Shown here piece by piece: positions 3,309 to 14,947 of a stretch of DNA of 14,947 nt (its first letter is position 1; each line of letters starts with the position of its first letter). The stretch lies in the IMG/VR virus record IMGVR_UViG_2778261635_000005; one strand, given 5' to 3'. The notes under the pieces are model-generated. The model made no database searches and was not told the origin of the DNA. It saw only the letters and a program-made list of their open reading frames with translations. This DNA is from a virus (Duplodnaviria > Heunggongvirae > Uroviricota > Caudoviricetes). The position numbers were made by a program, and so were the translations under genes.

Positions 3309-3884
3309 CTACGGCAGTGCTGGCCATTCAATATCCTGTGCAGTTGACGTATCAACACGGTTCAGCAATACCCGATACTTTTTCCATGCTTCCAGCAACG
3401 AGATTTCTTCCTCCGTTGCAATTTCCAGATCTGCAGCATCCTGAAGCGGCGCAATATGCTCACTGGCTACCTGCATCAGGCTGTTTTTTGTTTCTTCCGC
3501 CTCCCGGATCCGGAACAGTTTTTCTGCTTCCGTATCCTTCACCCAGGCTGTGCCGTTCCACTTCTGATATTCCCCTCCCGGCGATAACCAGGTAACATTT
3601 TCCGGTAACGGACCGAGTTCAGAAATAAATAACGCGTCGCCGGAAGCCACGTCATAAACCGTTTTACCCCGATGATCTTCAACGAGATGCCACGATGCCT
3701 CATCACTGTTGAAAACAGCCACGAAGCCTGCCGGAATATCTGGCGGTGCAATATCGATACTGTTTGCTGGCAGACCTGTATGAGGCGGAATATATGCGTC
3801 ACCTTCACCAATAAATTCATTAGTTCCGGCCAGCAGATTATAAATTTTTATGGTCCGTGGTTGTTCACTCATTCTGAATGCCAT
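3309..3884 (-). CDS. tfaQ: Tail fibre assembly protein (lambda Tfa-like chaperone)
   Basis: 191-aa [37 protein letters not shown]... recognised as the lambdoid Tfa family; its start overlaps the stop of the upstream tail-fibre ORF (TAATG), as in stf-tfa pairs. Confidence 0.9.
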
Positions 3885-6064
3885 TATGCAAGCCTCACAA
3901 TATAGTTAAATGCGATGTTTTTGACGGTGTTTTCCGCGTTACCAGCAGCGTTAACGGTGATGGTATGTCCATGTGAACCAATCGCAACGGAGTGCGTATG
4001 AGCACCAATACCGACAGTATGTGCGTGTGCACCTGCGCTTGCAGCAGTACCCGATACAGAGTGCGTATGAGCGCCTGCAGAAGAAGTGTTAACACTGTAT
4101 TTAGAATAATCAGGTGATCCACTTCCCGGAGCACCACTGGAACCACCTGAAACAAATGTCATCGAATGGGTATGTGCACCGGCTGAAGCAGCCGTACCGC
4201 TAACACTATGGGTATGCGCACCAGTGTTATTCGTGGATTTAGTGCCGTAATCAAACGACGATGTGGTTTTCGTCCCCAAATCCGTACTGGATACGCTGGC
4301 GCTGTGGGTGTGTGATTTAATGCCGTCCTGTTCCTGAGACAATACGGCTCGATCACTGGCGGGCTTGCCCTTAATCGTCCAGCCACGCATATCAGGGATC
4401 ACGCCTGACGGATAAGCGGCTGCAAGTTTCGGGTAAGCAGATTTGTCAAAAGTCTGCCCCTGCATCAGGGCATAACCAGACGGAACGGTATCTGATGGCC
4501 ACGGGATTGGTGCACCGACTGGATAAAACTCTGCAGGAGGATGAGCCGAGGTGTAAAGCTGCGCCCACGGCGACCAGTTTGCGTCGGTCGTATCCCGTCG
4601 TGAACGAATAAATGCCGGAGCATGAGCACCGCTTGTACCACTCCAGCCGATGAGTAACTCACCTTCGCCAACGGCTGTCATCCCTTTCAGGTGAATGATA
4701 TTTCCATACGCTGTTGGATATCCGTTGTTATACACCTCGTATAACTCAAGACCTGTTGCCCCCTGCGTATTGTCTGTCAGCGCGGTTACCTGAACCACAA
4801 AACGGCGATGACGTCCCGCCTGCACATCCACTGTCGCCACAAGGAAATTAATGCCATCCGGCACACTGCGGGAAGGAACTGGCTCTGCCCGCTGCTCAAG
4901 CAGTTCACTTTTTCGTTGCTCCATGCTGGCACGAGGAAGATAAGGCAATCCCCAGTCGGTGTTGATAACCGCCCTGAGTGTTTCTTCGCTTCCTGTCGCT
5001 TCATACTCCTGTTCTGCAGTCAGTAATTTGTAAACCAGTTGCGCCCAGGTCTGATACGCAGCAGCTGGCCCTTCCATCCAGAAACTGGCGATACGGGAGC
5101 GGCGCGGTTCACCGGAAACGTTGCCGTTACGATCAATGACCTGACCTTCACGCAACCAGACTCCTGCACTATTGAGCTCACGCTTTTTCTCCGCAGTGAT
5201 AATGCCGCTGCAGTGCGGGCAAAGTAGATACGCCGCCTCACTGGCTTTAAAGGGATCCGGTTCATTACGGTAGCCGGTCATGGCATCCATGGCTGGCTGA
5301 AAATATTCACCGCAGTGCGGACATGACCAGTACCAGCGGCGGCGGTCACCACGATTGTAAAGGGAAAGAATACCAGTCGTCGGTGGCGCTTCATGAGGCG
5401 ACTTACGTCGCCATTTGCTGTCGCAGATGTCACGTCCCGGCGAGCTCTCCACCAGAGTCATCCCGGCGGACATAAATGTGGTGGTACGTTTTGAGGCCAG
5501 GGAGAAACCATCACCCTCGCTGTCGATATTCTCCGGAAAACGGTCGTAATCGGTTAAGGCGACAAACCGGTAATCCGACGACGACATAATGTTGACCGAG
5601 GGCCAACCAATTTTAAGGAACGAGCCATCCCTGAACGTCTTATCATGGACATTATTGTCGTTACGACGTGGACTCATTCTTTTCTTTACCGCCGCACTGC
5701 TTCTGAACGTTCTGTCGAGGCGCTTTTTAGAATGCTCGCGGGCCTTATCTTCGGTCATCTGCACAACGAGCATGTCCGAAGGATCGCAAACGATGGTATA
5801 GACAATCCATCCATCGATCAGACCAATGGTCTTCCCTGTTCGCGCAGGACCAACAAAAATCACCGCATCGTATTCACGCGATGCCAGGCAGTTCATGGGC
5901 TCAATGATGTAGGGTGTCAGTTCAGGATCCCATGGCACCGAGTTACCAGCCCCCTTGGGAACACGCATGAATTTTTTAACAGCCTCCGAAATCGGCATGC
6001 GACGTGGTGGGGAAAATCCTGCCGATATGTCCCTTCCCAAATTTCGGGCTGATGAAAAACCCAT
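3884..6064 (-). CDS. stfQ: Chimeric ORF: large terminase (gpA-like) N-terminal about 430 aa fused in frame to a side-tail-fibre C-terminal region
   Basis: 726-aa ORF with strong AGGAGG RBS. The N-terminal part has Walker A GPARTGKT (residues 72-79) and two CPHC motifs (248-251, 282-285) in the lambda gpA arrangement. The C-terminal part has a tail-collar-like block ([23 protein letters not shown]...DMRGW) and seven HxH motifs typical of fibre tips. The gene symbol refers to the tail-fibre portion; the reference annotation may split this ORF differently. Confidence 0.8.
3962..4315 (-). repeat. HxH-motif repeat region encoding the tail-fibre distal tip
   Basis: Seven His-x-His motifs (SHTHS, GAHTHS x4, GAHAHT, GSHGHT) in residues 584-701 of the fusion ORF; the 18-aa block [18 protein letters not shown] occurs twice with clearly different codons. 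Confidence 0.6.
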
Positions 6065-8249: not shown

Positions 8250-8423
8250 TCAGATTAAATTAATCTTGACATCATAGCTTTCAAGACCCGTCATTTTTTC
8301 CCGTGCGGTAAACTGAATACTGGTAACTTCTTTCCCGGTCTTTTTCTTAAGTTCAATAATTTTTTTTGTTATATATTCAGAAATATCTGCTTCTGCTTTT
8401 GTTTTTAAGTTTTCAATATTCAT
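8250..8423 (-). CDS. gnsB: GnsA/GnsB-family small protein
   Basis: Hand-translated 57-aa ORF (M)MNIENLKTKAEADISEYITKKIIELKKKTGKEVTSIQFTAREKMTGLESYDVKINLI with AGAGGA RBS; below the track cutoff. Matches recall of GnsB. A weak hairpin with a T-tail follows on the minus strand (8205-8220). Confidence 0.85.
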   Translation of the reverse strand: MNIENLKTKAEADISEYITKKIIELKKKTGKEVTSIQFTAREKMTGLESYDVKINLI

Positions 8424-8594
8424 CATTTCCTCTTTTAGTCTGTTATGACTTTCCAGTTACACAGTAAGTCGATTATATGGTGCAAACGTGTAAAAGATAA
8501 GATGAAACATCGCAATAATCAACATACGATAGTCTAAATTTTACACAAACAGACAAAGAGAATTTTCCTGAATTATCAATACAATAGCATCAAA

Positions 8595-8825
8595 TCAACT
8601 CAAGAGCCTTATTGCTGCTTCCAGAATTTCTTCTGAAGTAACATGTCGATCCGCGGCTACATAAATGACTTTATGATCTCCGGTCAGAGATGGAAACCCT
8701 GCGGCCATTACAGTAAGGTGTGTTTTTTCGCCATTTGGATATTCACGCATGATGGTGTTAACTCCAGTCATCGCTGGCACTACCACTGCTGGTTCAGAGT
8801 TAAAAAAAACTATGATTTTTTTCAT
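8595..8825 (-). CDS. ynfN: Hypothetical small protein (ynfN-like); start uncertain
   Basis: Track ORF 8595..8867 begins at a TTG; in-frame ATGs at 8825 (MKKIIVFF..., 76 aa), 8771 and 8750 (MREYPNG..., 51 aa). None has a strong SD. Coding-like throughout. Position between cspI and gnsB matches K-12 ynfN; symbol given on positional grounds. Confidence 0.5.
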   Translation of the reverse strand: MKKIIVFFNSEPAVVVPAMTGVNTIMREYPNGEKTHLTVMAAGFPSLTGDHKVIYVAADRHVTSEEILEAAIRLLS

Positions 8826-8870
8826 GATGTTACCGTAGTATGTGAGTATCCATCGAATAGATACCAAGCA

Positions 8871-8889
8871 AAAAAGCTCCCGAAGGAGC
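8871..8889 (-). terminator. Intrinsic terminator downstream of cspI
   Basis: On the minus strand GGCUCC-UUCG-GGAGC (5-bp GC-rich stem, UUCG tetraloop) followed by UUUUU. Confidence 0.45.
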
Positions 8890-9096
8890 CTTCATTTTCA
8901 CTTTTTTAAATCCAACGACAGACGGCTGGCATTTAAGTATTGTGAAATATTATCAAATGTAATCATCATTGATTTACAAAAGATACATTTTGCCCCGAAA
9001 GGATTCATGTCAGAAACATCAAAAGATGATGTTCTATACTGGGAACCATGACAACACGGGCATCTAAAGTGAATATGGTTTGTAATATTGTCTACC

Positions 9097-9309
9097 TCAA
9101 AGCGCCACTACATGAACAGCGGCAGGACCTTTAGGTCCGTTCTCAATACCAAATTCAACTTCCTGATTCTCAGTTAATGTTTTGAAATCGTTGCTCTGAA
9201 TTGCTGAGAAATGGACAAACACATCTTTGCTGCCATCTTTCGGCGTGATGAAACCAAAACCTTTTTCAGGGTTAAACCATTTCACTAAACCAGTCATTTT
9301 GTTAGACAT
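9097..9309 (-). CDS. cspI: Cold shock protein, CspA family
   Basis: 70-aa [41 protein letters not shown]... with RNP1 (KGFGFI) and RNP2 (VFVHF) motifs; AAGG RBS 7 nt upstream. Confidence 0.95.
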
Positions 9310-9418
9310 AATTATTACCTTTTGAAGAAATTAGCCCTTGGGCAGAATGGTCCGAAAAAAAATATCAGAGAGAAAAACCAACAAGGAAATCTCAAGAGGT
9401 ACAAATAATAAAATTATA
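9310..9418 (-). promoter_or_regulatory. cspI promoter and 5' UTR (candidate -10 TATAAT at 9418-9413)
   Basis: Perfect TATAAT about 100 nt upstream of the cspI ATG on the minus strand; CspA-family genes typically have long 5' UTRs. No clear -35. Confidence 0.35.
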
Positions 9419-9672
9419 ACAATGACTGCTTCAGATAAATTTGTAACAAACCAGAACACCATTAACGCATGATTAACCACCCATAGCAAGGATTACTTTT
9501 GTAAAGAAAAACACAGCAATGAAAGAATAGCTTTATTTATTAATAATAACGTGTCATTCTGATTAAGACCTTTTATCTTACCCTTAAGATTTCAGGAATT
9601 TTGGCTCATGGAAGAGTCCTTTTTATTTAAATTTTACATTCCGCGATGTAAATGTTCCGATTTAATATTACC

Positions 9673-10700: not shown

Positions 10701-11008
10701 ATATATTTATGATGAGGACGCTCGTGTTTATTGGCAGGATTTTCAATCTTAAAGGAGTACTGATGCTGCAGATAAGACTCAACTTTTTCTGACAATTTTT
10801 CTGCTACTTCCAGGAAGACTTGCCGGACGCTCCTTCTGGCTGCTGCCTCATAAAACTCCAGCGCAGCTCCTTCAACACGGTCCATGGCGACATCCAGGTC
10901 AAAAATTTCACCGTCAAAGCGTTCTTTGTCCTGTAAGGCTACAGTTACCGTAACTTTATTCTCAAAATTACGGACTCCTTTCACAACCAGTTCATAGTCT
11001 TGAGTCAT
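10697..11008 (-). CDS. ydfR: DUF1327-family protein inserted between holin and lysozyme
   Basis: 103-aa ORF with GGAGAG RBS inside the end of the holin gene; its stop overlaps the lysozyme start (ATGA). Confidence 0.8.
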
Positions 11009-11012
11009 TGGA

Positions 11013-11228
11013 TTACTCTCCTCTCGCAGCCTTACGCCTGTCTTCTTTAATCTTGAAATAAAGATTTGTCAGATACGTCAGCAGGCCAAAAACCAGGCTA
11101 CCCAGCACACCGATTGCAGCCCACTGTGACGGAGTTACTTTATCGAGTAACTGCAATGCCCAGAAACCAGCATTACCCGCCGATGTGCCATAGGCAACAC
11201 CTGTTGTTAACTTATCCATTGATTTCAT
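11013..11228 (-). CDS. essQ: Class II holin, phage 21 S-type pinholin with dual start (MKSM...)
   Basis: Track ORF 11013..11303; the in-frame ATG at 11228 gives 71-aa [71 protein letters not shown], near-identical in layout to recalled S21 (two TMDs, dual Met starts). Confidence 0.85.
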
Positions 11229-11447
11229 ATCCTCACCCCGATGTACACGGATGGTGCAATATGTTTGAAAAGATCGGAGTCTACGGGGTAGTTTTGACAG
11301 CACACGCTGTTCTCAACGGCGCTAAAGAAACATACACATTAAAAATGTGAGTAATTATTTTGAAAGAAAGTCATATATAAAATAATAATACGAGAAATGT
11401 TTTCATATTTAGTGTACTGTATACGGCCATTTATACAGGAAAAGCCT

Positions 11448-11618
11448 ATGTCAGAACGTAAAGACTCAAAATCACGCCGTAATTATCTCGTTAAATGTTC
11501 CTGCCCAAACTGCACCCAAGAGTCAGAACACAGTTTTTCAAGAGTACAAAAAGGTGCCCTTTTGATCTGCCCTCATTGCAACAAAGTATTCCAGACAAAT
11601 CTTAAAGCTGTAGCCTGA
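11448..11618 (+). CDS. Small zinc-ribbon protein (56 aa)
   Basis: In-frame ATG within track ORF 11397..11618 with AGGAAAAG RBS 7 nt upstream; product MSERKDSKSRRNYLVKCSCPNCTQESEHSFSRVQKGALLICPHCNKVFQTNLKAVA carries CxxC...CxxC. Oriented against the late operon. Confidence 0.5.
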   Translation: MSERKDSKSRRNYLVKCSCPNCTQESEHSFSRVQKGALLICPHCNKVFQTNLKAVA

Positions 11619-11670
11619 TTGATTTTATTAGTAACAAGTATTTTTTATATTTTAATAATATATTTAAAGC

Positions 11671-11699
11671 AGATAATAAAAAACCCGCCTGAGCGGGTT
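11671..11699 (-). terminator. Strong intrinsic terminator ending the cspB transcript region
   Basis: Minus strand AAACCCGC-UCAG-GCGGGUUU stem followed by UUUUAUUAU; about 280 nt downstream of the cspB stop. Confidence 0.6.
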
Positions 11700-11981
11700 T
11701 GAGATTGTGGTGCTTTTTGTGGGAGTCATCCACTTACGCACTTTGTTTTGCCATGCCAGCAGTTAGCTTCTGCTGTAAAACTATTCATGCAGCAAACCTG
11801 CACTTCACCACAATGGTTAGCATACTTTTCCTGATTAAGATTTTGCCAAATATGCTGGCCATTGTTTCATGTATTGGACCTCCTTAATTTTTATTAAAGA
11901 AATCCAATATTCACTACTCTGTCCGTATCTCTACTCAGGCATCAGCCTTCTTCGTTATCGTATACAGACGAGCGATGAATT

Positions 11982-12197
11982 TTAATCAGTAATGATGACA
12001 TTTGCTGCTGCAGGACCTTTAGCACCACTCTCTATAGAGAAGGTAACCTTTTGACCTTCAAATAAGGTTCGATAATTATCATTCTGAATCGCAGAAAAAT
12101 GCACAAACACATCTTTACTACCATCAACAGGAGAAATAAAGCCGAAACCTTTATCAGCGTTAAACCATTTTACTAAACCAGTCATTTTATTTGACAT
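11982..12197 (-). CDS. cspB: Cold shock protein, CspA family
   Basis: 71-aa [41 protein letters not shown]... with RNP motifs; AAGGA RBS 7 nt upstream. Confidence 0.95.
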
Positions 12198-12360
12198 TCT
12201 ACATTCCTTAACTTGAGCCTTTCGGCATAAATGGTTTGCATAACAGAAACGACTTCGTACTTAATTGGAGAGACTCAAAGAAGGAATAAGTGAATAACAC
12301 CTGAAATGAGAACTGCTTTAGTAAACTACTTCGTATATCGTCTGTTCTTCAAACCGACGC
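12198..12360 (-). promoter_or_regulatory. cspB promoter and long 5' UTR (candidate -10 TTAATG near 12359-12354)
   Basis: About 150-nt leader between a cspA-like -10 (TTAATG, preceded by TTGCTT at about 18 bp) and the ATG; consistent with the long 5' UTRs of cold-inducible csp genes. Confidence 0.35.
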
Positions 12361-12497
12361 AATCATTAACGCATAGTTGAACATATGAAGCAATGTTTAT
12401 TTTAGACATCCAGCCATCTTCAACCCCATCAAAAAACTATAGCTTTCTTCAGGAACGTGTGTATAGTGCGCCAAGTTATCAGTATTAAGGAATTTTT

Positions 12498-12710
12498 TTG
12501 TCCCGTAAAATGACAGGAATTGTCAAAACCTTTGACGGCAAAAGCGGCAAGGGTCTTATCACCCCATCCGATGGTCGTATCGATGTCCAGCTTCATGTTT
12601 CAGCGCTCAATCTCCGCGATGCAGAAGAAATTACCACCGGATTACGCGTGGAATTTTGCCGGATAAATGGTCTGCGTGGCCCTTCAGCTGCCAATGTTTA
12701 CCTTTCATGA
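12498..12710 (+). CDS. cspF: Cold shock protein homolog, CspA family
   Basis: 70-aa track [43 protein letters not shown]...; initiates at TTG with AAGGA 7 nt upstream; divergent from cspB. Confidence 0.9.
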
Positions 12711-12764
12711 GCTATATTAAAGCTTTAATTTCAGGCCCCATCGGATCACACATGGAGAGTTTTT

Positions 12765-12854
12765 ATGAATAACCCCGTCTGTCTTGATGACTGGTTGATT
12801 GGCTTTAAAAGCTTATGCTGTACTTTGGCCGTAATAGCTCTGCTAATAATATAA
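12765..12854 (+). CDS. Candidate small hydrophobic peptide (29 aa)
   Basis: ATG at 12765 with GGAGAG RBS (7-nt spacer); product [29 protein letters not shown]. Below the track cutoff; speculative. Confidence 0.2.
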
Positions 12855-13002
12855 TAAGCAGACTCATTGTGTTTAGGGACATTGTACTGGAAGAAAACAT
12901 TTTAAACATCAGGCAAATAACCAAGTCACCAGCTAAATAATAAGTTAACAGACATGAGTCCCGGGATGAGATTCAACATTACCATTGCCCCATTTAAAGC
13001 AC

Positions 13003-13038
13003 AAAACCCGCTCATCAGCGGGTTTTCTACTTTTTCTT
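13003..13038 (+). terminator. Intrinsic terminator (plus strand); the same hairpin may act as an early terminator for the minus-strand late promoter
   Basis: AAAACCCGC-TCATCA-GCGGGTTTT stem followed by CTACTTTTTCTT on the plus strand. Confidence 0.5.
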
Positions 13039-13071
13039 AACGTCGGGTATACAAAGCCCATCGTTGAAAAA

Positions 13072-13100
13072 ATTTTATCCATATTTTTTGAAAAATGCAA
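13072..13100 (-). promoter_or_regulatory. Candidate late promoter (pR'-like) immediately downstream of Q
   Basis: Minus strand TTGCAT - 17 bp - TAAAAT located 30-60 nt after the Q stop codon, the position of pR'/qut in lambdoid phages. Confidence 0.3.
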
Positions 13101-13131
13101 ACATCATGTCGCCATCTTCAGCAAAAATCAT

Positions 13132-13884
13132 TTATCTCGTCACCTTCCTCAATTGCGCTTCCGCGTATGCTTCTTCCTGCCAGCACTTTGTTACCAGTTT
13201 ACCAATGACGTCCGCATACCCCTTATACCACTGATAATCGGTCAGGTCTGGTACCAGCTTCTGGACATGACGTCGTGCCAGCGTGGTCGGTAAACGACTA
13301 AACCGGTTTCCATTACAACGCCCACAAATCTTATATACCGGTACGCCATGAAACCGGGTTCTTTTTTCATCCAGAACAATCCCTTTCCCCTTACACCCTC
13401 TGCACGCTGTGCTGACTTCGCCCTTACCATGGCAATGCTGACATAGTTCCTTCACCCATTCTTCCTTGATTACAGATTCCCCGCGTCTGTAGTGTTTCAC
13501 CACTTCGCGCAATACATAATAAAATCCCGTACCTGAACAATGCTCACAGCGAGCCTTACTTGCCGCAGACCTGGAGTAATCAGCAAAGGCAAAACTCACG
13601 AGGTAAGGAATAATCTGTAACCGGATTTCTTCACTCAATTTGTTCAATGTCGGGTTATCCAGTGCCATCGCGTAATTTAGCAGGCCTTCAATCGCAAACT
13701 GAGGGTCCTGAACACCAACTTTTGCCAGAAATAAGGCCAACCCAAGTGGTGCTTTCGACTGCACCATCCCCTGCGCTGCCATTACATCCGTAATTGTTAA
13801 ACAACCGGTGCCTGTCGCTGGAGCGTCATCGCTCAATTTTGGAGATTTTGGGGAGTAATATTTTGGTAAGGCTTCAAGGTTCAT
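13132..13884 (-). CDS. quuQ: Late-gene antiterminator Q (zinc-binding Q family)
   Basis: 250-aa ORF with Cys clusters CEHCSGTG, CQHCHGKG, CRGCKGKG, CGRC; located directly upstream of the lysis region as in lambdoid phages. Confidence 0.9.
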   Translation of the reverse strand: MNLEALPKYYSPKSPKLSDDAPATGTGCLTITDVMAAQGMVQSKAPLGLALFLAKVGVQDPQFAIEGLLNYAMALDNPTLNKLSEEIRLQIIPYLVSFAFADYSRSAASKARCEHCSGTGFYYVLREVVKHYRRGESVIKEEWVKELCQHCHGKGEVSTACRGCKGKGIVLDEKRTRFHGVPVYKICGRCNGNRFSRLPTTLARRHVQKLVPDLTDYQWYKGYADVIGKLVTKCWQEEAYAEAQLRKVTR

Positions 13885-13897
13885 GCTCGTTCTCCAC

Positions 13898-14947
13898 TTA
13901 CGCCAGTACGCCAGTTGCCAGCGCGCGATCGATAAAACGAAATATCAGCTCCAGTTGGGAGCCATACTTCTCTTCAAATGCCACTGTATTCGTATGCAGC
14001 TCGTTGTGATGCTTTCTGCACAAAGGCAACACAAAGAGATCATGTGCTTTTGTTCCCATTCCGCCCTGCCCGTGACCAATCAGATGATGCGGATCGTCGG
14101 CTGGCATACCGCAGCAAGCACACGGCTGTGTCTTAACCCAACGAGTGTATTTCTCCTTAACCCAGCGGCGACGTTTAGGCAGCTTCATGAAAGATTCCGG
14201 AGACTCTGGATCAACGGTGATGCTTACCACCGTCTTTTCCTGTGGTGGTTTTTGTTGCTGGTGGGCGTAAGGCAACGGTGCAAGATTTTTTGTGCGTTGT
14301 TTCAATATGCTGGTGGCGGTCTGCTCTCCCGGTACGATGTCGCTTTCGCGGTACACCGAGCAGATTTTTTCCGCTGGTAATCCCAGCGAACGACGCGATA
14401 CAGCCTCAGGTAGTGCATCCACCACCTGATTGCAGACCGCCCACCAGGATAATTCAGCCAAAGATAATTCCCGCTCCTGCGTACCGCTTATTGCGTGACG
14501 GATGACGTCAATCACCCATGCTGTCAGATTTTGTTGAGCAAGCAGTTCCAGTGATTCCGATGTCTGGTCACGCAGTTGGTTGTCGCAGTGCCAGCACAAC
14601 ACCATTGCGCCGGTACCATAACGGTGAATGACTGTTTCAGTGTGATGGTAATCGCCATTAGGCCACTGGCAGGATGTAACATGACGTAATAGCCAGTCAG
14701 ACAATGCGCCAACGCCGCCAGCAGCACGAATCACCCGTTCGTTACTAAAAAACGGCAGCAATGTTTTGTCTTCCGCCAGCGGCTGGCGAACGGCAGGAAC
14801 GACTCCGGATGGCAGATTACGCATGCTTTTTGGTTCCGGTTCCACCAGCACTCGAGGATTATGAAATATCTGTATGGATTCACGGCCCGGCTTAAGGACC
14901 ACCAGCCCAAGCTCAGGCACCAGAACAGGTCTAAGTAATACCCGCAC
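13898..14947 (-). CDS. ydfU: nin-region protein (DUF968-like) with C-terminal HNH-like motif
   Basis: 349-aa ORF whose first codon (GTG) coincides with the window edge, so the true start may lie outside the window. C-terminal CACCG...DPHHL...LCRKHHNELH resembles an HNH/zinc-finger nuclease motif. Confidence 0.7.
   Translation of the reverse strand: MRVLLRPVLVPELGLVVLKPGRESIQIFHNPRVLVEPEPKSMRNLPSGVVPAVRQPLAEDKTLLPFFSNERVIRAAGGVGALSDWLLRHVTSCQWPNGDYHHTETVIHRYGTGAMVLCWHCDNQLRDQTSESLELLAQQNLTAWVIDVIRHAISGTQERELSLAELSWWAVCNQVVDALPEAVSRRSLGLPAEKICSVYRESDIVPGEQTATSILKQRTKNLAPLPYAHQQQKPPQEKTVVSITVDPESPESFMKLPKRRRWVKEKYTRWVKTQPCACCGMPADDPHHLIGHGQGGMGTKAHDLFVLPLCRKHHNELHTNTVAFEEKYGSQLELIFRFIDRALATGVLA

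Follow-up and report, generated by a model that had tools for sequence, protein, structure and literature searches.

The DNA considered here, hereafter the window, is a stretch of 14,947 nucleotides (record IMGVR_UViG_2778261635_000005 of IMG/VR). Its open reading frames (ORFs) and their annotated matches identify it as the late region of Qin, a cryptic prophage of Escherichia coli. Between the gene of the antiterminator Q (quuQ, also named ydfT) and that of the holin (essQ), it contains two divergently transcribed paralogues of cspA, cspB and cspF. An initial annotation had drawn attention to this pair, had compared its position with that of the toxin genes of Shiga toxin (Stx) phages and had supposed that late transcription would run through it. 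The locus itself is already known; it is annotated in every K-12 record and is an ordinary textbook locus. The concept of a moron, or cargo unit, in the slot between Q and the holin is known as well, and so are its parts, the cspA-type leader and the lambda-type pR′/tR′ unit.

On the minus strand, the Qin late region comprises ydfU (14947..13898), quuQ, cspB, essQ, ydfR, rrrQ, rzpQ and cspI (9309..9097), and on the plus strand cspF, ynfS and ynfU (Table 1). Since both quuQ and essQ are on the minus strand, this strand is the late strand, and cspB is co-oriented with late transcription. Genes identical to cspB and cspF of the window are annotated under those names in Qin prophages in RefSeq. 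With respect to Qin of K-12, the window shows 98.5-99.3% identity and retains a larger terminase remnant. At least 80% of the region 10900-13950 is present in 1608 of 5426 complete E. coli genomes; the layout of cspB and cspF is therefore not a chance pattern. As a whole, what the initial annotation had observed holds in every detail, whether ORFs, strands, start codons, spacer, leader or flanking genes are considered, and the pair does lie between quuQ on one side and essQ on the other.

Table 1. Features of the Qin late region between Q and the holin gene (coordinates of the window).
Feature	Position	Strand	Description
essQ	11013..11228	-	P21-type class II holin, first lysis gene past the cargo; Pfam PF04971, 1.1e-33
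ynfU	11448..11618	+	Small zinc-ribbon protein, antisense to late transcription; Pfam PF23499, 4.7e-31; annotated in RefSeq
Intrinsic terminator hairpin	11681..11700	both	Strong on the minus strand (AAACCCGC...GCGGGTTT then TTTATTAT); plus side ends ynfU
Structured stretch downstream of cspB	11701..11866	-	Strongly folded; conserved blocks reach from Qin as far as Enterobacter and phage PHB10
cspB 3′ untranslated region	11867..11981	-	Two stable hairpins; dominant mRNA 3′ end at 11869/11867, just past hairpin 11907..11874
cspB	11982..12197	-	Canonical CspA paralogue, 71 aa, ATG start; Pfam CSD PF00313, E = 9.8e-32, full domain
cspB 5′ untranslated region	12198..12358	-	161 nt, cspA-type thermoregulated leader with Rho-dependent attenuation site
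cspB promoter	12359..12405	-	UP-like AT tract; -35 TTGCTT 12393..12388; -10 GTTAAT 12370..12365; start G12358
Candidate cspF promoter	12439..12467	+	TAGCTT, 16-nt spacer, TATAGT (12462..12467), about 30 nt upstream of the TTG; -35 weak
cspF	12498..12710	+	Divergent CspA-family protein, 70 aa, TTG start; Pfam CSD PF00313, E = 5.6e-22, full domain
ynfS	12765..12854	+	29-aa small protein, 3′ of cspF; Pfam PF23697 YnfS, 4.7e-23; annotated in K-12
tR′ hairpin	13003..13026	both	Minus: ends the short pR′ RNA of about 67 nt; plus: positioned to end cspF-ynfS
pR′-like late promoter and pause element	13057..13100	-	-35 TTGCAT 13100..13095, 17-nt spacer, -10 TAAAAT 13077..13072
quuQ/ydfT	13132..13884	-	Lambda-family antiterminator Q; Pfam PF03589, 4.4e-54; extra DnaJ-type zinc finger PF00684

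QuuQ is full length and matches the lambda Q structure 7ubm of the PDB at 4.3e-36, as well as 4mo1 and 7ubj. It is 93% identical to the Q proteins of phage 2H10 and of the Stx2k phage (phiSTEC1575-Stx2k). A Q of the phage 21 type or of the phage 82 type was rejected, because the PDB search matched lambda Q only. Directly downstream of the Q stop codon stands the pR′-like promoter, with the pause element AACGATGGG at 13065..13057, 6 nucleotides past the -10 box. Transcription would start at A13065, the predicted +1. The architecture of lambda pR′ is the same (TTGACT-17-TAAATT-6-AACGATGGG), and TCAACGATGGG is invariant in the alignment of lambda, Qin and SfV. In lambda, the -10-like pause element induces a sigma-70-dependent pause, at which Q loads. 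A consensus scan lists the Qin promoter with a shift of 1 nucleotide (TTTGCA, 18-nt spacer, TAAAAT, 13101 to 13072, 9 of 12 matches). In 2H10, SfV, Ayreon, mEp460 and phiSTEC1575-Stx2k, the promoter, the pause element and the stems of the hairpin that follows are nearly invariant, and the hairpin loop alone varies.

This hairpin is tR′. The predicted 71-nucleotide pR′ RNA folds at -30.4 kcal/mol (z = -6.5), and its plus-strand version has z = -6.8; a terminator scan detects tR′ on the plus strand, facing cspF-ynfS. SfV and Ayreon carry the homologous hairpin with a terminator annotation. In K-12 MG1655, Term-seq mapped a minus-strand 3′ end at 1642356, which is position 12999 of the window, in at least two growth conditions (Adams et al., 2021, PMC7815308). 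This end lies 4 nucleotides past the foot of the hairpin, and it follows that K-12 makes a short RNA terminated at tR′. It would begin at the start predicted for pR′, giving an RNA of about 67 nucleotides (12999-13065, minus strand), which carries no small RNA (sRNA) annotation. The short pR′ RNAs of Stx phages act as regulatory sRNAs. A further K-12 minus-strand 3′ end, at 12831 and antisense to ynfS (PMC7815308), suggests a partial read-through of tR′ without Q.

The tR′ hairpin also marks a boundary. When the region 11000-13900 was compared using BLAST with phages sharing the Q module (SfV, Ayreon, mEp460 and the Stx2k phage), an identity of about 90% extended from Q to exactly position 13003, the foot of tR′. 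Beyond this point, no match was found until the holin gene, at or below position 11240 with mEp460. The cargo thus spans about 11241..13002. In the same slot, mEp460 carries a methylase gene and hypothetical genes, Ayreon and SfV carry small ORFs of unknown function, and phiSTEC1575-Stx2k carries three tRNAs and stx2AB, between tR′ and a class II holin. Both phiSTEC1575-Stx2k and 2H10 belong to the genus Glaedevirus. The view that the interval is the toxin slot of Stx phages is therefore borne out. A congeneric phage, with a 93% identical Q and the same pR′ and tR′, has stx2 in the very same place, so that the analogy amounts to a direct positional homology. Concerning the content of the interval, the two CspA paralogues are present as described; the cargo, however, is larger than the interval initially delimited, because it consists of four genes, ynfU, cspB, cspF and ynfS. 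Seen from pR′ along the minus strand, late transcription would meet ynfS and cspF in antisense, cspB in sense and ynfU in antisense, before the holin gene. A search of 11250-13200 against Rfam at a permissive threshold gave, besides the cspA element, sub-threshold matches only (isrK at 18 bits, Trp leader, P9 and others), which were driven by terminator hairpins and were rejected.

Within this cargo, the region separating cspB from cspF (12198..12497) measures exactly 300 bp, as initially described. An alignment of Qin, 2H10, K-12 cspH/cspG and PHB10 reveals two conserved promoter sets arranged back to back. The predicted start sites of cspB (12358) and cspF (about 12474) are about 116 bp apart, the rest of the region being accounted for by the 161-nucleotide cspB leader and by a cspF leader of about 24 nucleotides. 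In CspB, the aromatic motifs that bind nucleic acids are intact (RNP1 KGFGFI, RNP2 VFVHF). The blocks of its promoter are unchanged among cspB, cspG and the PHB10 pair. The long cspA-like leader that had been proposed for cspB is real: the cspA thermoregulator model of Rfam (RF01766) matches 12358..11966 of the minus strand with 158.8 bits (gathering score 78, E = 4e-42). As in cspA, leader and ORF together match the full model, and promoter, UP element and 161-nucleotide leader are arranged in the same way; unlike cspA, cspB is borne by a prophage and could be reached from an upstream promoter that depends on Q. Cold induction of cspB has been reported in the classical literature. The transcription start at G12358 agrees with the first position of the Rfam match, and the primer used by Adams et al. 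(2021) for cspB cloning begins at GTCGGTTTGAAG, again in agreement with this start (PMC7815308).

Published data indicate how this transcript is handled in the cell. Rho-dependent termination within the cspB leader and ORF at 37 °C is supported by Term-seq and reporter data: a 3′ end at 1641634 of K-12, 80 nucleotides upstream of the ATG, is flagged as Rho-dependent, and expression of a cspB fusion rises more than 2-fold in rhoR66S (PMC7815308). At the other end of the gene, the Term-seq 3′ ends at 1641226 and 1641224 on the minus strand, corresponding to 11869 and 11867 of the window, have the top scores of the region (PMC7815308). In a lysogen of phage Tritos (LF82), CspB RNA was found 59-fold, and CspI RNA 93-fold, above the prophage background (PMC9928086). 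Transcription and regulation of cspB are thus autonomous, and the gene is expressed from a repressed prophage. Endowed with a promoter and a 3′ end of its own and with a cspA-type leader, cspB is a classical moron and is not purely under late control. Late control of the stx type does not apply to the cargo, since cspB is transcribed and regulated autonomously and cspF points the opposite way. The properties expected of a moron are found in the cassette as well. It is present in some phages of the group and missing from close relatives, with sharp boundaries. For cspB, it has a conserved promoter and 3′ ends at 11869/11867, and a terminator lies at 11700..11681. Finally, it is expressed from the repressed prophage in the Tritos lysogen (PMC9928086).

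The region that follows cspB is strongly structured (z = -6.3 for 11670-11985). The 280 nucleotides between the stop codon and the terminator (11701-11981, minus strand) fold at -102.8 kcal/mol, with z = -6.3, and their conserved blocks extend to Citrobacter, Enterobacter and phage PHB10. About 165 of the conserved nucleotides lie beyond the dominant 3′ end that K-12 Term-seq places at 11869/11867, and they belong to no known transcript. An RNA element is not claimed here, because the consensus fold gave hairpins with no more than 4 compensatory pairs, and its covariation term was unfavourable (+2.12). Tiny ORFs in this region, such as MLTIVVKCRFAA and a 25-aa ORF at 11862..11785, were rejected because they are not consistently kept across genera. 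The terminator at 11681..11700 was found by the terminator scan and has a fold z of -5.8; Citrobacter keeps its hairpin, changes being confined to the loop, and K-12 Term-seq shows a weak plus-strand 3′ end there, at 1641060 (PMC7815308). The spacer between essQ and cspB (11229-11981) is in wide use in synthetic biology as a chromosomal site where integration is considered neutral (e.g. PMC2847246). It nevertheless holds ynfU and the conserved structured region, and late transcription would pass through it.

On the other side of the divergent region, cspF had been described as antisense to late transcription and as starting at TTG, and RefSeq gives the same TTG (WP_000087756.1). CspF is a divergent member of the CspA family, in the CspF/CspH clade. 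Its RNP motifs are not intact (SGKGLI, VQLHV), W11 is replaced by T, and most aromatic residues of the RNP1/RNP2 surface are substituted. Published work agrees that most of the RNP aromatics are missing (PMC6719143). Its match to RF01766 is sub-threshold (14.1 bits), and cspF thus has no cspA-type leader. The candidate promoter would be formed by GTATAGT and T-R-G-C-T at a fixed spacing; these blocks are invariant in Qin, K-12 cspH, PHB10 and more than 20 genome loci, whereas their surroundings diverge. Downstream of cspF, ynfS, which encodes a hydrophobic peptide of 29 aa, stays with the cassette in Citrobacter.

One may then wonder whether the pair is simply the decaying baggage of a dead prophage, cspF being a pseudogene or untranslated. 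Qin is defective, the start codon of cspF is weak, most RNA-binding aromatics of the protein are gone, frameshifted copies occur (loci L035, L036 and L039, and Tritos), and a cspF knockout has no phenotype in long-term stationary phase (PMC7406224). However, in all the intact cspF/cspH-type genes retrieved, from five genera (Escherichia, Citrobacter, Salmonella, Enterobacter and Klebsiella), the TTG and the AAGGA Shine-Dalgarno sequence are kept, codons 2-4 show synonymous changes only and the length is fixed at 70 aa. The ratio of nonsynonymous to synonymous substitution rates (dN/dS) relative to the Qin copy is 0.06-0.17. Thus, cspF is under purifying selection despite its weak start codon. 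As the -10 box is conserved too and cspF is present in active phages, we regard decay as highly improbable.

The distribution of the cassette extends beyond Qin. In phage 2H10, the stretch from Q to the holin is 94.8% identical to that of the window. The layout is also found in the deposited or plaque-forming phages HannyBb, PhiR42_1, PhiR63_1 and Tritos, and it is kept in all 80 of the IMG/VR contigs retrieved, which, being near-identical Qin-type contigs only, add numbers but no diversity. Tritos forms plaques, and its authors list CspB, CspI and YnfN as morons (PMC9928086). The four genes ynfU, cspB, cspF and ynfS are kept together in loci of Citrobacter, Enterobacter and Klebsiella, and ynfU and ynfS accompany cspB/cspF across genera (loci L015, L017-L019 and L029-L033). 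A prophage of Citrobacter sp. FP75 has the block in the corresponding slot, with unchanged orientation, flanked by an unrelated Q (PF06530) and a different holin. In Citrobacter braakii, the neighbours of the block are ars genes and a DUF262-type gene, and phage genes are absent from the vicinity. Finally, phage PHB10 (L010 4219-4937) has a divergent pair of a cspB-like gene and a TTG-started cspF-like gene near int, a gene of an SOS-response peptidase and umuDC. Because this pair lies outside the Q-holin slot and has the conserved promoter blocks, the divergent pair moves as a unit.

These data bear on the idea that the cassette mainly serves the phage. CspB is an RNA chaperone, and its family includes transcription antiterminators; made late, it would keep late RNA unstructured for lytic growth in the cold, and CspF would antagonise or tune this activity and be silenced by antisense transcription. 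In favour of such a role, cspB runs with and cspF against late transcription behind two unrelated Q families, and the layout is conserved in active phages. Moreover, a second cargo block (8250-9455, minus strand), composed of cspI, homologues of ynfQ/ymcF, ynfR and ynfN, and gnsB, follows the Rz gene. In this block, cspI has its own RF01766 leader (112.8 bits) and lies on the same strand, so that the lysis cassette is flanked on either side by cold-shock genes of the late operon. On the other hand, the same divergent pair occurs outside late operons, near int and umuDC in PHB10, as chromosomal cspH/cspG and next to ars in C. braakii, and congeneric phages manage without the cassette. Besides, expression of cspB and cspI occurs while the prophage is repressed (PMC9928086), and loss of either gene lowers the fitness of the host in long-term stationary phase (PMC7406224). 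A benefit chiefly to the phage therefore seems quite improbable.

Altogether, we consider it likely that the Qin interval corresponds to the slot in which a lambda-type late operon accommodates cargo (morons), here a portable four-gene cassette that has its own promoters and that is subjected to Q read-through upon induction. With respect to the initial interpretation, all structural statements stand; cspB, however, is not late-controlled in the manner of stx, and the cargo exceeds the interval that had been considered. The following sequence of events may be envisaged. In the repressed or cryptic prophage, sigma-70 polymerase would start at pR′ (about 13065) and make an RNA of about 67 nucleotides, whose 3′ end is mapped at tR′ (13026..13003). 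Independently, cspB is transcribed from its own promoter; its 161-nucleotide leader limits expression at 37 °C, by virtue of its thermoregulated structure and of Rho attenuation, and permits it in the cold, and the mRNA ends about 115 nucleotides past the stop codon. From the back-to-back weak promoter, with a poor TTG start, cspF-ynfS transcription would run toward the other face of the tR′ hairpin. Since the two transcripts approach opposite faces, the hairpin would keep pR′ and cspF mutually insulated.

Once Q is produced, as happens upon induction of intact relatives, 2H10 and Tritos for instance, it would load at the pR′ pause and render the polymerase resistant to terminators. The late transcript would then cross ynfS and cspF in antisense and the promoter, leader and gene of cspB in sense, pass the 3′ hairpins of cspB and the terminator 11700..11681, run antisense through ynfU and enter essQ-ydfR-rrrQ-rzpQ. 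As a consequence, cspB RNA could become independent of cold and of Rho, and convergent transcription together with antisense RNA could interfere with cspF-ynfS and with ynfU. Indirectly, the strongest argument for this predicted read-through comes from the active relatives: because the lysis genes are located downstream of the cassette, late transcription from pR′ has to cross it. Going one step further, it is possible, but we propose it only tentatively, that the cassette behaves as a two-state switch. In the lysogen, the bidirectional tR′ would separate pR′ from cspF-ynfS and cspB would be held down at 37 °C by its leader and by Rho; upon induction, Q would override tR′, the Rho site in the cspB leader and the cspB terminator, thereby yielding cold-independent cspB RNA and, through convergent transcription, silencing cspF, ynfS and ynfU.

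Several observations weigh against the proposal of a cassette crossed by late transcription. The start at pR′, the loading of Q, the read-through across the cassette and its consequences are steps that we infer, and the cspF promoter, like the pR′ start site, is a prediction from the sequence. A generic promoter scan was not enriched over shuffled sequences (10 matches versus 6.5 expected), and the promoter calls therefore rely on homology and conservation. In K-12, minus-strand RNA halts at tR′ or soon after, with 3′ ends at 12999 and 12831, and the Term-seq data list no minus-strand 3′ end at the terminator 11700..11681 (PMC7815308). If read-through occurred, the foreign 5′ extension of the RNA might cause the cspB thermosensor to misfold, and the output of CspB protein would be uncertain. 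Finally, this copy of Qin is defective, so that Q may never be expressed. A 726-aa ORF (3884..6064, minus strand) resembles the terminase large subunit at its N-terminus and a tail fibre at its C-terminus; this fusion appears to be the deletion scar that makes the prophage defective. At the same site, the K-12 annotation has shorter pieces, nohA and stfQ. Nearby, a match to Rfam IS009 (RF02111) is found inside tfaQ (221 bits, window 3343-3541, minus strand).

The binding of RpoE and RpoH holoenzymes in the K-12 essQ-cspB spacer, observed by genomic SELEX (systematic evolution of ligands by exponential enrichment), goes in the same direction, because it makes an independent promoter of the lysis genes possible. 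In such a model, the cassette would be insulated from the late operon and the lysis genes would use a promoter of their own in the spacer, perhaps with an alternative sigma factor, so that transcription from pR′ under Q would have no bearing on cspB and cspF. A weak sigma-70-like match at 11381..11354 (minus strand), the strength of the minus-strand terminator 11700..11681 and the fact that the holin gene is preceded by a stretch proper to this cargo are consistent with it. However, mEp460 and the Stx2k phage have the same Q, pR′ and tR′ followed by other cargo and then by the holin, and no holin-proximal promoter is conserved. In addition, the SELEX scores in the spacer are low (3.3-7.0). Lambda-family Q also renders polymerase resistant to both intrinsic and Rho-dependent terminators. 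Insulation of the cassette thus appears unlikely, and read-through under the control of Q is retained as the preferred reading.

It is instructive to compare this arrangement with known systems. As for Stx-converting phages, the cargo of phiSTEC1575-Stx2k occupies the same slot, after the same Q-pR′-tR′ and before a class II holin, and is missing from sister phages. There, stx is co-oriented with pR′/Q read-through and is known to be largely dependent on it (PMC8065619). By contrast with stx2AB, the csp cassette brings promoters and 3′ ends of its own as well as a thermoregulated leader, and two of its four genes are counted here as pointing against late transcription. The concept of lambdoid morons, due to Hendrix and Juhala, is illustrated by bor and lom of lambda and by nmpC, located between Q and the holin in DLP12-type prophages. 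Like these, the cassette is an autonomous unit between phage genes, which close relatives lack and which is expressed while the prophage is repressed; unlike these, it is divergent with two promoters, has two extra genes of small proteins and shares a bidirectional hairpin with tR′. Finally, the Qin control unit resembles pR′-qut-tR′ of lambda, the source of 6S RNA, by its Q family, by the spacing of the -35 and -10 boxes, by the AACGATGGG pause element and by a constitutive short terminated RNA. It differs by the length of this RNA (about 67 versus 194 nucleotides), by the DnaJ-type zinc finger inserted in Q and by the bidirectionality of the tR′ hairpin, which faces a convergent cargo operon.

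A last comparison concerns the chromosome of K-12. The cspH-cspG pair has the same divergent geometry, the same promoter blocks and the TTG start, with 76% DNA identity over 635 bp. Unlike the Qin locus, it has no Q, no holin and neither ynfU nor ynfS, and cspG is followed by ymcF-ymcE-gnsA, homologues of genes placed after cspI in Qin. The chromosomal block cspH-cspG-ymcF-ymcE-gnsA therefore matches cspF-cspB on its 5′ side and cspI-ynfQ-ynfN-gnsB on its 3′ side. Three cspG loci (E. coli, Escherichia albertii and Citrobacter sedlakii) were compared with two phage references; the segments concerned are 9097-9470 and 11982-12358 of the window and 4964-6241 of L007. The cspG leader is 72-82% identical to that of cspB and 43-52% to that of cspI. 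Over the last 120 nucleotides of the ORF, identity is 55-64% with cspB and 67-75% with cspI, and in the 3′ flank 36-44% and 64-79%, respectively. To judge from these alignments, cspG looks like a chimera with the 5′ part of cspB and the 3′ part of cspI, and the cspH-cspG locus looks like a Qin-type late region that would have lost ynfU and the lysis cassette through recombination between cspB and cspI.

The agreement with the initial annotation chiefly indicates that the sequence had been read correctly. Beyond it, the gain is modest: the present analysis places the pR′/pause/tR′ unit of Qin precisely and ties it to an experimentally mapped RNA 3′ end. It also defines a four-gene cargo with exact boundaries in the stx2 slot of a congeneric phage, and it proposes that the chromosomal cspH-cspG locus is linked by evolution to Qin-type late regions, which can be tested. 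A literature search on quuQ/ydfT together with cspB retrieved no study of Q-dependent transcription in Qin. A phylogenetic study of Csp proteins and two transcriptomic studies treat cspB, cspF and cspI, or cspH, without their prophage setting (PMC6719143, PMC7406224, PMC11228462). In one of them, expression of cspB, cspF, cspI and ynfN increases jointly in long-term stationary phase and the Qin prophage is never mentioned (PMC7406224). In another, azidothymidine (AZT) induces cspI, ynfQ, ynfN and cspF in a partly LexA-dependent manner, and only ynfQ and ynfN are tagged as Qin in the table (PMC11228462). Neither of these two ties the co-induction to a single prophage late region. The prophage context could explain the co-regulation of cspB, cspF and cspI. 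If both the switch proposed above and the chimeric origin of cspG were true, five of the nine CspA paralogues of E. coli would be cargo of Qin-type lambdoid late regions: CspB, CspF and CspI directly, and CspG and CspH as the fossil of a deletion of the lysis cassette between cspB and cspI.

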